Below are positions 39,478 through 42,370 of a stretch of 64,000 nucleotides of DNA, in pieces. This stretch comes from an uncultured Coxiellaceae bacterium (GTDB lineage Bacteria > Pseudomonadota > Gammaproteobacteria > DASZBR01), in contig CAZLGL010000006.1 in NCBI GenBank assembly GCA_964559315.1, forward strand, positions 2,683 to 66,682, read 5' to 3'. Position 1 is the first letter of the stretch. The number at the start of each line of letters is the position of its first letter. A program made the translations under genes and the position numbers. A model generated the notes under the pieces. That model saw only the letters and a program-made list of their open reading frames with translations. It had not been told where the DNA came from and did not search any database.

Positions 39478-40161
39478 ACATTTCTCGATTGGGATACCCA
39501 ACAGTTAGGAATTCCGACGGCCAAGATTACGTCAATTACGTCGGAGATTCTAGCGGAAGCCAAACAATCGGGAATAAAATTAGTCTACTTTCAAACGCCC
39601 GAATCTGATATTAGCCAGATTAAATTAGCGAAAGAATTGAGCGGCATCTTAGTGGATAATAAAATTACGTATTTGATGTCCCTTAAAAATCTTTGTATTC
39701 CCAGTGATCCTAGCGTTAAATCTTTTGCCGCCACCATTCCATCTGAAGCATTATTAAAACTAGCTTATGAAAGCGGCTTGTATTCTCGCTTTCGAGCAGA
39801 CCCTAACTTATCCGATCAGCAATTTAAAAATATTTATAAAACCTGGATAACCAATTCAGTTAATCATACCGTTGCGAATGATGTTTTAATTATTGAAGAA
39901 GATAATCAACTACTGGGCATGGTAACAGTGGGTGATAAAAACCAACGCGGTGATATTGGATTACTGGCAGTTGCAGAATCTGCGCGCGGAAAAAATATTG
40001 GTACGCGTTTAGTAAGAGCAGCGCAGAAATATTTTATAGAAAAAAATTATTCGCATTCTCAAGTGGTTACACAACAGACAAATATTCCAGCGTGTAAGTT
40101 GTATGAAAAATGTGGGTATCATATTGAAAAGACGGAATGTTTTTTTCATTTTTGGATTTAA
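39451..40161 (+). CDS. Two-domain GNAT-family N-acetyltransferase (WecD-like architecture)
   Basis: The C-terminal GNAT core is LLGMVTVGDKNQRGDIGLLAVAESARGKNIGTRLVRAAQKYF. Start uncertain; the proposed ATG at 39451 overlaps the divergent tsaE start. Confidence 0.55.
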   Translation: MNIKNHVSHTFLDWDTQQLGIPTAKITSITSEILAEAKQSGIKLVYFQTPESDISQIKLAKELSGILVDNKITYLMSLKNLCIPSDPSVKSFAATIPSEALLKLAYESGLYSRFRADPNLSDQQFKNIYKTWITNSVNHTVANDVLIIEEDNQLLGMVTVGDKNQRGDIGLLAVAESARGKNIGTRLVRAAQKYFIEKNYSHSQVVTQQTNIPACKLYEKCGYHIEKTECFFHFWI

Positions 40162-40169
40162 TAACTATC

Positions 40170-40910
40170 ATGAACTTCATATCAAAAATCATATTTATGC
40201 TCTTGTTATTAATTTATACAACTTCAAGTTTCGCCCACGCGATCAACTGTCAGCCAGATCCCCCCACAGCAGATAGCGAATACAATTCGTTATTTCAAAA
40301 AACATCTGCACAATGGCCAAAAAAATTGCGGCTATTACTTCATCATGCAATTAACGCTAACGAAAAATTTGTTGGTACACTCTTCTCCTTTTCAGATGAA
40401 CCCGCAATTTTTGCTCCACAGTATGGCAAAGCATTTGATTTAATAAGAGATAATTGGTACAAAAATGAGTTTCTTTCATTCCAAAGTATGGTAAAAAATA
40501 GCGAAGCAGGTCTATTTCCACCAGTTGTTTCTGAAAATGAATTTGCTCAAGCGGATAAAGAGCTTAATGCGGTCTATAGCAACATTATGAATACACTTAA
40601 AATTGCAAACCGTCCCCTTGATAAGATGGATAAGTGTTCTATGAGAGCAGATCAAATAGAACCTCCACATGGTATTTTTTGCGCCGACTTACCGGATCCA
40701 AGCGAACTGAAAGAGGCTCAACGAGCGTGGATAACTTATCGCGATGCATGGGTTGCATTTGCAGCCGCACGCTATCCCTCGGTGCCAGTCATAGCCTGGA
40801 AAATGAAGCTAACACAAGAGCGCGTCGCTCACTTAAAAAAAGTTCAAGTAGCACTCCCACACTTTTTAGATTCTTCTTCGCCTGACTATGACAATGCCCT
40901 TGGCAATTAA
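40170..40910 (+). CDS. Secreted DUF1311 (LprI-like) domain protein
   Basis: Signal peptide MNFISKIIFMLLLLIYTTSSFAHA. ELKEAQRAWITYRDAWVAFAAARYPSVPVIAWK is the DUF1311 motif. Paralog of the gene at 17208-18386. Confidence 0.55.
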   Translation: MNFISKIIFMLLLLIYTTSSFAHAINCQPDPPTADSEYNSLFQKTSAQWPKKLRLLLHHAINANEKFVGTLFSFSDEPAIFAPQYGKAFDLIRDNWYKNEFLSFQSMVKNSEAGLFPPVVSENEFAQADKELNAVYSNIMNTLKIANRPLDKMDKCSMRADQIEPPHGIFCADLPDPSELKEAQRAWITYRDAWVAFAAARYPSVPVIAWKMKLTQERVAHLKKVQVALPHFLDSSSPDYDNALGN

Positions 40911-40931
40911 AAAATTAGGGTTCTCCTGCTT

Positions 40932-40998
40932 TTTTCCCCACTCCCCACGCTGCCGCGCGCCCCTCTCCCACACAGGGAAGAGGGGCTAAGTACTTTTT
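40932..40998. repeat. Left arm of ~66-bp inverted repeat flanking the DUF559 gene
   Basis: ttttccccactccccacgctgccgcgcgcccctctcccacacagggaagaggggctaagtactttt is ~94% identical to the reverse complement of 41406-41472. The arm is internally palindromic (CCCCTCTCCC / GGGAAGAGGGG). Confidence 0.8.
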
Positions 40999-41058
40999 AA
41001 TGTTGCGTTAAATTTTCAAACCATTACAATTTTCTTTTTTAATAATTAAAGGTAAGTT

Positions 41059-41418
41059 ATGAGAGAACGCTCCCGCCTTCTTCGCAAAAATCAAACTGAA
41101 GCTGAAACTACATTCTGGAATATCGTTCGTAAACAGAAATTTTATGGCTTCAGATTTCATCGCCAATATGTTCTGCATGGTTATATTCTTGATTTCGTTT
41201 GCTTTCAAAAACTATTAGTCATTGAATTTGATGGTCAACACCATTTAGAAAATAAAGGATACGATAAAATACGAGATGATTATTTAAGAGCAGGTGGATT
41301 TACTGTTTTACGATTTATGAACCGAGAATTTTTACAAGAAACTGATTATGTACTATCTAAAATCCACCAAAAAATTATTGGGCTACCAGATAAACCACGA
41401 TATTTAAAAAGTACTTAG
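41059..41418 (+). CDS. DUF559 / VSR-like PD-(D/E)XK endonuclease-domain protein
   Basis: YILDFVCFQKLLVIEFDGQHH...RDDYLRAGGFTVLRF matches DUF559. The TAG stop lies inside the right IR arm. Confidence 0.65.
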   Translation: MRERSRLLRKNQTEAETTFWNIVRKQKFYGFRFHRQYVLHGYILDFVCFQKLLVIEFDGQHHLENKGYDKIRDDYLRAGGFTVLRFMNREFLQETDYVLSKIHQKIIGLPDKPRYLKST

Positions 41419-41472
41419 CCCCTCTTCCCCGAGTGGGAGAGGGGCGCGCGGCAGCGTGGGGAGCGGGGAAAA
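41406..41472. repeat. Right arm of ~66-bp inverted repeat flanking the DUF559 gene
   Basis: aaaagtacttagcccctcttccccgagtgggagaggggcgcgcggcagcgtggggagcggggaaaa. Confidence 0.8.
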
Positions 41473-41473
41473 A

Positions 41474-42370
41474 CTACCCCTGCACCGCCAACGTTCCCGA
41501 TCGCCCTTCTATCTGTCCTTGAATAAAATTATTGACTGGAATTCTGTCAGGATGCTCTAAAAATTCTTTTGCAATATCGTCCATCTTTTTAAACACAATA
41601 TTTTTCTCTTTCAGCGCAATTAAAAACTTTTTAAACCACTGTAGTTTTGCCATGCCTTCAATTTCAGCATGCATCGTAAAAATATTGGGCAATTCGGGAT
41701 TTAATAAACTCACATAGTAATCAATTAATTTTTCTTCCGGGTATTCAGGTCGACCTAACAACTCATCCAGTGTCGGCAATGTCGTGGGAATCTGTATGGT
41801 TTTAAACACATGCCCGCGAACTTGCGGATAAAATGGATAAAGACCACGGGAATCACTGGCATATAATAAATTTGCCGCATCATATGCCGCTAAGCTATTT
41901 GAATTCGCTTGCCAACCAGCTGATCCTGCTGTTAACGGTCTTTCGTTAAAGACGTTTTGGAATTCATCACAGGCTTTTTTAAATTCTTCAAACACTTTTT
42001 CACGGGAAATTTTATGGACATTGTCTTGCCAATAAATATGGTCATAACAGTGGATACCCACTTCATGGCCCAAGGATTTAGTTTTGCGCATAATATCCGC
42101 ATGACGTTTTGCAATATGCGGACCCGGCCATAACACGCCATTTAATAACGTCTTAAATCCGTACATGGAAACCACATTACTGCGCGCGACTTTTTTTAAA
42201 AATCCGGGGCGGAAAATTCTTTTTAACGCTCGACCCGTATTATCGGGACCTAACGAAAATAAAAACGTCGCAGGAATGTTTAACTCAGAAAATAAATCTA
42301 AAAGATTAGAAACGCCGACTTTAGTACCACGCTCGGTATCAACATCTATTTTCAGCGAAAATACCGTCAT
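41474..42370 (-). CDS. arnD: ArnD-like polysaccharide-deacetylase-family enzyme (4-deoxy-4-formamido-L-arabinose-phosphoundecaprenol deformylase homolog)
   Basis: [53 protein letters not shown] aligns with the E. coli ArnD N-terminus ([20 protein letters not shown]...[21 protein letters not shown]). Confidence 0.75.
   Translation of the reverse strand: MTVFSLKIDVDTERGTKVGVSNLLDLFSELNIPATFLFSLGPDNTGRALKRIFRPGFLKKVARSNVVSMYGFKTLLNGVLWPGPHIAKRHADIMRKTKSLGHEVGIHCYDHIYWQDNVHKISREKVFEEFKKACDEFQNVFNERPLTAGSAGWQANSNSLAAYDAANLLYASDSRGLYPFYPQVRGHVFKTIQIPTTLPTLDELLGRPEYPEEKLIDYYVSLLNPELPNIFTMHAEIEGMAKLQWFKKFLIALKEKNIVFKKMDDIAKEFLEHPDRIPVNNFIQGQIEGRSGTLAVQG

Follow-up and report, generated by a model that had tools for sequence, protein, structure and literature searches.

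We analysed a 64-kb stretch of DNA (64,000 nucleotides, hereafter called the window) from an uncultured Coxiellaceae bacterium, in which a gene for a 119-aa DUF559 protein, a predicted nuclease resembling E. coli YcjD, is enclosed by two long inverted repeats, the arms, best described as a long-spacer variant of the triplex-motif (TM) repeat. We are inclined to read the gene and its TM-variant arms as parts of one unit, a compact selfish cassette. Gain and loss affect the arm-gene-arm unit as a whole, and related genomes carry it at many different positions, facing either way. Selection maintains the arms, arm pairs without a gene exist, and the association of DUF559 genes with TM repeats extends across phyla. 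We infer that the nuclease itself is the driver of the spread. Neither the repeat type nor the protein domain is new. In the literature searched we found no account of their linkage or of the cassette as a unit, and likewise no published link between DUF559 or YcjD and TM repeats.

An earlier note on this DNA had described inverted repeats of about 66 bp and about 94% identity. They are real, and slightly larger and better matched than first thought: a repeat search gave arms of 70 nt that are 96% complementary (67/70) and lie 403 nt apart (coordinates in Table 1). The differences between them, which had been placed entirely in the loop of the internal hairpin, are three in number, two being in the loop (40972 and 40974) and the third in the outer C-rich block (40940, A versus G). 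Each arm is indeed internally palindromic, with a hairpin for which ViennaRNA predicted strong folding, about −25 to −31 kcal/mol in 81-nt contexts; the ViennaRNA prediction for the arm is of the hairpin only. The hairpin pattern had 0 matches in 100 shuffles and occurred nowhere else in the window. GC content is 75% in the arms, 33% in the DUF559 coding sequence and about 20% in its leader, for 39% in the window. Rfam covariance models gave no match between 40700 and 41700, with gathering thresholds or with E values up to 1, and a canonical promoter scan called no promoter in the cassette, the possible −10 of Table 1 included.

The gene between the arms, the stop codon of which falls inside the right arm as the note had described, matched the DUF559 profile PF04480 with an E value of 1.4e-34 and 118.7 bits (cutoff 20.6), over profile positions 4-108 of 109. 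The family belongs to the Vsr/DUF559/DUF2726 clan of PD-(D/E)XK nucleases. Residues D45, E56, D58, H62, R85, N88 and E90, which include the conserved acidic residues and His of the predicted active-site region, are invariant in an alignment of distant homologues that includes E. coli YcjD, and the closest solved structure is PDB 3HRL, an uncharacterised “endonuclease-like protein” of N. gonorrhoeae (E 4.6e-21). With PRK09767, the NCBIfam equivalog of E. coli YcjD, the window protein scored 72.8 bits, below the cutoff of 218; judged on its sequence it is a YcjD homologue, not an equivalog. Its only other Pfam match was a weak one to MTES_1575 REase. No transposase was recognised in Pfam, NCBIfam or PHROGs searches, PHROGs giving a weak match to an HNH-labelled family; PADLOC returned no defence system for the cassette protein, and blastn of the whole cassette against PLSDB plasmids no match.

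TM repeats follow the consensus (TM_ECO) CCCTCNCCC-N3-6-GGGNGAGGG-N3-GGGNGAGGG (Holder 2015, Nucleic Acids Research (NAR), PMC4666352; earlier work by Hoyne et al. 2000 is cited there). E. coli K-12 has 23 of them, five as inverted pairs, and more than 260 genomes contain the motif; they form triplexes in vitro and are linked to local rearrangement (PMC4666352). No transposase, integrase or other mobility function has ever been found near them according to the same study, and published TM work reports no associated mobility or nuclease gene. Like the window arms, these intergenic and often paired and inverted repeats, known from hundreds of genomes, consist of three blocks, a pyrimidine/purine GC hairpin plus a third, mirror-repeat block rich in G or C, and in E. 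coli TM#9 adjoins ycjD. The first two blocks and their loop are found in the window as CCCCTCTCCC-ACACA-GGGAAGAGGGG, 1 nt over the consensus with one bulged A. The third, G-rich block mirroring the purine strand is GGGGAGTGGGG in the left arm (complementary strand) and GGGGAGCGGGG in the right arm; in the left arm it allows triplets at 10 of 11 positions. The arms depart from the TM consensus in the second loop, where 3 nt (TTA or CCG) are replaced by a conserved spacer of 12-13 nt (CGCGCGGCAGCG), measured at 13 nt in the window (CGCGCGGCAGCGT), in an additional inner extension, CTAAGTAYTTTTT, and in that they enclose a gene.

The neighbouring genes are those named in the note, DUF1311 on the plus strand and arnD on the minus strand: an LprI/DUF1311-like gene (PF07007) and a gene for an ArnD-like deformylase (NF011923, 266 bits, short of the equivalog cutoff). 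Among named relatives of this ArnD the closest, at 62% identity, belongs to a Legionellaceae metagenome-assembled genome (MAG). The note had suggested an empty-site comparison. ArnD homologues 86-92% identical to that of the window lie on contigs of three lineages (L126/127/128, L129/130 and L131) that carry no cassette at arnD. The gene order is kept in all of them, with lolCE-like ABC genes, an arnC-like GT2 gene and arnD, followed by convergent GNAT, tsaE and amidase genes, and only 0-9 nt separate the stop codons of arnD and GNAT. Aligned to these empty sites by blastn, the window shows breakpoints at 40155-40161 and 41469-41475, which means that it contains about 1.31 kb of extra DNA, namely the LprI-like gene and the whole cassette. 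On the side of arnD this indel is bounded by the right arm's outer end. The LprI-like gene starts 9 nt past the GNAT stop, with no arm on its upstream side.

A single relative of the LprI-like protein (52% identity) was found, in contig L141; there too its gene lies past the same GNAT end, and an arm and a DUF559 gene (83% identical) come next. The L141 cassette (860-1208) thus occupies the same GNAT-LprI site as that of the window, in the opposite orientation. Since L141 is near-identical at the GNAT end to the empty contig L129, the block is polymorphic within a close lineage. Linkage between LprI and cassette was seen in the window and L141 and not at other cassettes; the LprI homologue search returned no LprI-positive, cassette-free site, its sole relative having the cassette too. 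Contig L126, which lacks the cassette at arnD, has a related one (L121) at a distance of 230 kb, flanked by SIMPL and bioD-like genes.

Proteins 65-88% identical to the window DUF559 protein were all bounded by the same arms, and were found in at least 7 other gene contexts: carboxyltransferase operon/thiolase (L120), SIMPL/bioD-like (L121-124), LysE/unknown (L142), membrane protein/carbonic anhydrase (L164), unknown/aspartokinase-like (L165), and further different contexts in L125 and L133. Flanks of these cassettes (SIMPL, bioD, thiolase, LysE), sought as reciprocal empty sites, were not present in the window. With the arms recurring and the junction empty in relatives, the arms are neither unique to this locus nor conserved with the flanking genes in all relatives. 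The proposal of the note that this is a mobile, MITE-like (miniature inverted-repeat transposable element) or homing-type cassette is therefore supported as regards recurrence and empty sites, with the qualifications that the indel is larger than the cassette and that no target-site duplication is visible.

Between elements, identity is 80-89% in the arms, 64-72% at synonymous third positions and 46-68% in the leaders. The arms being more conserved than either, they are held GC-rich by selection in AT-rich genomes. The hairpin loop varies among elements and is identical in both arms of one element, which points to arm copying or gene conversion. L142 and L165 share a compensatory stem change, C-G to T-A, together with a matching C to T change in the third block at the same register. 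Read in terms of a triplex, this would look like a G·G:C triplet swapped for A·A:T; the three-way change may be a single event, and two degenerate arms have unmatched changes.

Arms are also present without a gene. At least 119 stretches of the genome collection contain the 21-mer GCTGCCGCGCGCCCCTCTCCC taken from the arm, dozens of them in two Myxococcales MAGs and a Polyangiales MAG, and others in Dehalococcoidia, Chloroflexia and Alpha-, Beta- and Gammaproteobacteria. Arm-type copies number dozens per MAG in Myxococcales. The core conserved among these loci is CCTCACCCC-CGCTGCCGCGCG-CCCCTCTCCC-loop-GGGAGAGGGG-CT. Most are gene-less inverted pairs 122-500 bp apart, many copies being head-to-head at a spacing of 122-130 bp or 300-500 bp, and the interiors of the pairs are non-coding, lineage-specific and often internally repetitive. 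By analogy, they look like MITEs or REPINs (paired forms of repetitive extragenic palindromes, REPs). A DUF559 gene lies directly beside an arm in 2 of the 119 loci, enclosed in L050 and outside the arm pair in L073. The window protein had no tblastn match in the 119 arm-bearing loci; the L050 and L073 genes surfaced with more GC-adapted DUF559 queries only. As a separate observation, the gammaproteobacterial locus L055 (7565-7632) consists, within AT-rich DNA, of one long and nearly perfect palindrome in which two outer arm halves share a hairpin and enclose no interior; it could be a minimal or “empty” form.

The association of DUF559 genes with TM repeats is found well beyond the window-type cassettes. 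Homologues 36-43% identical to the window protein have their own lineage-specific TM-like motifs within 280 nt in 10 of 10 plasmid or chromosome records sampled (N. gonorrhoeae, Azospirillum, Deinococcus, Pseudanabaena, Sinorhizobium, Synechocystis, Picosynechococcus, Sphingomonas, Photobacterium and Methylobacterium), and metagenome or viral DUF559 loci (L134-L139, L143-L144) are likewise TM-flanked. Phage-type DUF559 relatives (about 32% identity) showed no TM flanks in a scan of viral contigs that gave few matches. A crude three-block detector was used to compare TM-like sites beside the gene with those in the surrounding 50 kb: 2 of 5 sites were beside the gene in Deinococcus, 2 of about 4 in Synechocystis and 7 of 12 in Sphingomonas, a proximity far exceeding local density (P 4e-3 to 2e-8 per taxon). 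The third block is gene-distal in the window, Deinococcus and Synechocystis B12, and gene-proximal in L136 and L144.

The cleanest insertion was found in Synechocystis sp. B12 (L161 24584-26677, plasmid CP101712.1), where a 498-bp arm-DUF559-arm unit splits a DUF1156 methyltransferase open reading frame (ORF) in frame. Residues 125-196 and 203-682 of the intact homologue align on either side of the insert, and both ends of the insert are exactly at the outer blocks of the arms. The same DUF1156 ORF has a separate frameshift upstream. In Deinococcus proteolyticus, plasmid pDEIPR03 (L160 38401-38871) has a DUF559 cassette with inverted TM arms inside an hpa catabolic cluster, on the opposite strand, between hpaB and a downstream oxidoreductase.

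In E. coli, ycjD (38% protein identity to the window DUF559) lies about 170 nt from TM#9, and a degenerate hairpin overlaps its stop codon. The gene is present, at a fixed chromosomal site, in 3,377 of 5,426 complete genomes (62%). TM-matching places were counted in an evenly spaced sample of 59 chromosomes. Strains with ycjD (n=36) had 10-26 TMs, median 18, and strains without it (n=23) 1-14, median 3; all 14 strains with 4 TMs or fewer lacked ycjD (Fisher p = 6e-8). Phylogeny confounds this association, since the strains poor in TMs are of B2 type. Where ycjD is missing, the eefRABC efflux operon occupies the fabI-sapF interval instead, and homology stops about 40 nt from the TM. Across the sample, TM copy number is bimodal to trimodal: B2-type strains have 1-4, O157:H7 about 12, and K-12-like and other strains 14-26. 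Between K-12 and Nissle (L140 1540-2340; L149 9242-17258), the fabI-sapF interval contains either ycjD and TM#9 or a 7.5-kb eefRABC and MFS efflux cluster, and its ycjD form has a partial duplicate of the ycjD 3′ end.

Under the selfish-cassette reading, the DUF559 gene of the cassette would be expressed, and the nuclease would recognise the folded arm (hairpin, cruciform or triplex), perhaps at a bulge or mismatch, and would nick or cut TM sites. The break would then be mended with a copy bearing the cassette as template and the arms as homology, so that the gene would spread or be retained and the two arms would be homogenised. The process would amount to homing-like gene conversion, with a logic akin to that of REPs and REP-associated tyrosine transposases (REP/RAYT), and gene-less TM pairs would be its targets or decayed derivatives. 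There are precedents: homing is known from the Vsr clan (PMC2677866), the Caulobacter DUF559 protein VsrA damages DNA in vivo (PMC12907096), and genes overlapped by inverted repeats are enriched in DUF559 genes (PMC9881135).

A wider claim, which we hold with distinctly less confidence and present as tentative, is that YcjD-like DUF559 nucleases are the cognate enzymes of TM repeats, gene and arms forming an unrecognised class of mobile element whose sole product would be a small, structure-specific Vsr-clan nuclease, and of which gene-less TM singlets and pairs would be the non-autonomous offspring or homing sites. If true, it would tell us where TM repeats come from and what DUF559 is for, each of two old puzzles accounting for the other: TM repeats are plentiful, conserved to a striking degree and tied to genome instability, and DUF559/YcjD is among the most widespread small nuclease domains without an assigned function. 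Should the nuclease be what drives the repeats, a second system of the REP/RAYT kind would have come to light, one that relies on another enzyme and on a three-stranded DNA structure, and cassette and TM loci would mark hotspots of accessory-gene turnover, such as LprI here and eefRABC versus ycjD in E. coli. The hypothesis is directly testable, because E. coli has both ycjD and 23 TMs.

Several points weigh against a selfish cassette. This reading does not explain the entry of the unit into sites without homology, the conserved inner extension, or the presence of LprI in the same indel, which has an arm at one of its two ends only. There is no homology at the new sites, and no target-site duplication was seen at the window cassette (the flanks of which, TTTTTT and AAAAAC, are inverted and not direct), in the comparison of L129 with the window, or at the Synechocystis B12 insert. 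To our knowledge, a 119-aa nuclease alone has no known route to DNA integration. Within the window there is one cassette and no TM beyond its two arms; in L073 the gene sits outside the arm pair and not within it, and the N. gonorrhoeae DUF559 gene (L150; 3HRL homologue) is flanked by direct, not inverted, repeats. The confounding of the E. coli association has been mentioned, and 10-14 TMs persist in O157:H7 and a few further lineages of the sample, all lacking ycjD. Finally, arm type is uncoupled from protein phylogeny: a 27-nt arm core is identical between the window and Myxococcales L050/L073, whose adjacent DUF559 proteins are just 28-33% identical to that of the window, whereas proteins 38-43% identical to it bear different arms, unlike the Myxococcales ones.

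Some of these points would be natural if DUF559 were an ordinary host nuclease for repair or structure processing that moves nothing, such as a solitary T:G mismatch endonuclease of the Vsr type, or an enzyme clearing hairpin or triplex blocks. The TMs would then be recombination-prone repeats spread by the host, and the gene would have come to lie among them via rearrangement hotspots or for useful local regulation. We regard this as unlikely, while giving it real weight. Holder 2015 ties TMs to local rearrangement without any mobility gene (PMC4666352), and the Caulobacter DUF559 protein VsrA behaves as a methylation-linked, SOS-induced repair nuclease, bringing about an SOS response once a cytosine methyltransferase is removed (PMC12907096). 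The retention of TMs by E. coli lineages without ycjD, the departure of arm type from protein phylogeny, and the turnover of accessory genes beside the loci (LprI here; eefRABC versus ycjD in E. coli) also fit a host nuclease. It leaves unexplained, however, why gene and both arms form one precisely bounded insert within an ORF, why the gene-plus-arms unit is found at 7 or more unrelated sites in related genomes, and why the loop is common to the arms of one element and different among elements. Moreover, no cytosine methyltransferase was noticed among the ORFs between 37.8 and 45.2 kb or the five Pfam-checked flanking proteins, the rest of the window not having been examined. That the protein is instead a restriction- or toxin-like stand-alone nuclease, serving defence or addiction, captured between pre-existing repeats and moved passively by recombination between them, seems improbable to us. 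Putative mobile forms of restriction-modification units were reportedly described by Furuta in 2010, the PD-(D/E)XK fold and the weak MTES_1575 REase match would suit such an origin, and cassettes are located in accessory regions; but PADLOC found nothing, the cassette has no partner methylase or antitoxin, and the family is near-ubiquitous and occupies a fixed chromosomal site in most E. coli genomes.

The reversed cassette of L141 raises another possibility, an invertible segment in which the 70-nt arms would be programmed-inversion sites switching the expression of the nuclease or the flanking genes. Proteins named “DUF559 domain-containing protein” and “endonuclease domain-containing protein”, two PGAP names of the DUF559 family, are enriched among predicted programmed-inversion targets (PMC9881135), which also fits genes that overlap inverted repeats. 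Opposite orientations were seen between lineages only (window versus L141), no recombinase gene is present in or beside the unit among the surrounding ORFs and Pfam-checked flanks, RecA can invert any 70-bp inverted repeat, and inversion would change little because the gene has its own leader inside the arms. As empty sites and gene-less copies are left unexplained too, we consider programmed inversion very improbable. The least credible explanation is that the arms are simply the convergent terminators of LprI and arnD, between which a small gene lies by chance, the note having proposed that the arms would also serve as bidirectional terminators. Each arm does read, from outside to inside, as a strong GC hairpin followed by a T-run, and several cassettes lie between convergent genes. 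The arms were not called by the terminator scan, however, because the T-run begins 8 nt past the stem; relatives do without them, with the arnD and GNAT stops nearly abutting, and the same arms are found at non-convergent places, within an operon and within an ORF. The terminator reading is already contradicted, and an incidental terminator effect is possible at most.

Among known systems, the proposed selfish cassette resembles REPtrons (REP/REPIN plus a RAYT transposase; Nunvar 2010; Bertels and Rainey 2011), in which one small gene lies between inverted hairpin repeats, with a single gene copy and many repeats that are dispersed as singlets and inverted doublets. The cassette differs from them in its enzyme, of the Vsr-clan PD-(D/E)XK type (only DUF559 and MTES_1575 matched) and not an HUH Y1 (IS200/IS605-like) transposase, and in its three-block, triplex-type repeats. 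Free-standing Vsr-like homing genes (Dassa et al. 2009, PMC2677866; I-Bth0305I) encode nucleases of the same clan and are found in phage fractured genes, in introns of group I, and also as free-standing insertions that split genes or lie between them, with presence/absence polymorphism (PMC2677866). Their proteins are larger, with DNA-binding domains, and come mostly from phages, introns and split-intein loci; terminal inverted repeats and repeat derivatives without a gene, both seen with the cassette, are absent from them. The precise presence/absence in close relatives expected of a homing gene is approached at arnD, where L126, L129 and L131 are empty, yet the indel includes LprI; a clean precise insertion was found in a distant family member only (Synechocystis B12). 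With MITEs and their autonomous transposons the cassette shares terminal inverted repeats, short gene-less derivatives with variable interiors, and many copies in some genomes; it differs in lacking a target-site duplication and a recognised transposase, and its terminal repeats are internally structured and conserved across phyla. The E. coli YcjD and N. gonorrhoeae NGO0050-type DUF559 proteins (PDB 3HRL) are of the same family and length, with the same invariant residues and 38-40% identity, and compared with these the window copy has the cleanest symmetrical arms.

Table 1. Features of the cassette and its locus (window positions unless a contig is named)
Feature	Position	Strand	Basis
Segment present in the window and absent from L126/L127/L128, L129/L130 and L131 (LprI-like gene plus cassette)	40162..41471		blastn breakpoints
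LprI/DUF1311-like secreted protein gene, near-orphan accessory	40167..40910	+	PF07007; homologue search
Left arm, 70-nt inverted repeat, outside-to-inside	40931..41000	+	repeat search; alignment with arms of 8 related cassettes
Left arm, outer C-rich “third block” CCCCACTCCCC, mirror repeat of hairpin 5′ strand	40936..40946	+	architecture as in Holder 2015 triplex motif
Left arm, conserved spacer ACGCTGCCGCGCG, second loop of motif, part of the 21-mer found in at least 119 loci	40947..40959	+	
Left arm, hairpin: pyrimidine strand CCCCTCTCCC, loop ACACA, purine strand GGGAAGAGGGG with one bulged A	40960..40985	+	
Left arm, inner extension CTAAGTACTTTTTAA, kept in all window-type cassettes	40986..41000	+	arm alignments
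AT-rich 5′ leader, ~20% GC	41001..41058	+	read from sequence
Possible −10 TACAAT in leader	41025-41030	+	read from sequence
Shine-Dalgarno-like AAGG in leader	41049-41052	+	read from sequence
DUF559 gene (YcjD-like, Vsr-clan PD-(D/E)XK predicted nuclease), 119 aa, intact	41059..41418	+	ORF; PF04480; alignment; PDB 3HRL
TAG stop of DUF559 gene, within right arm	41416-41418	+	
Right arm, 70-nt inverted repeat	41404..41473	-	repeat search
Right arm, inner extension with stop codon	41404-41418		
Right arm, hairpin	41419-41444		
Right arm, spacer	41445-41457		
Right arm, third block GGGGAGCGGGG	41458-41468		
Right arm, A-run	41469-41473		
Outer-arm copies, L121	2660-2870		
Outer-arm copies, L120	2820-2860		
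Outer-arm copies, L142	960-1050		
Outer-arm copies, L164	~800-870		
Outer-arm copies, L133, at most 80 nt upstream of left arm	~2270-2345		

Directly outside several arms, the outer arm (third block plus spacer) is repeated in tandem or partial copies (Table 1); L121 has 5-6 tandem units of about 33 nt each, and in L141 a degenerate partial copy lies immediately upstream of the arm. The DUF559 copy of L164 (427-753) lacks 11 residues of the ILDFVCFQKLL region, the conserved catalytic Asp included, while its arms are intact; from its sequence, this cassette appears to be decaying. Co-evolution of arm spacer and protein was considered and rejected, as arm type does not follow the protein phylogeny. 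In N. gonorrhoeae L150, the flanking repeats (220-500 and 960-1240) are of about 110 bp, with a TM-like motif in each. The empty junction in L129 (3897-3912, versus window 41458-41476) is GGGTGTAGGAAAAAAAC and resembles the typical outer end of an arm, GGGGGTGTGGGAAAA. The insertion target at an L129-type junction may therefore mimic the third block; coincidence is possible, since the junction also encodes the GNAT C-terminus.

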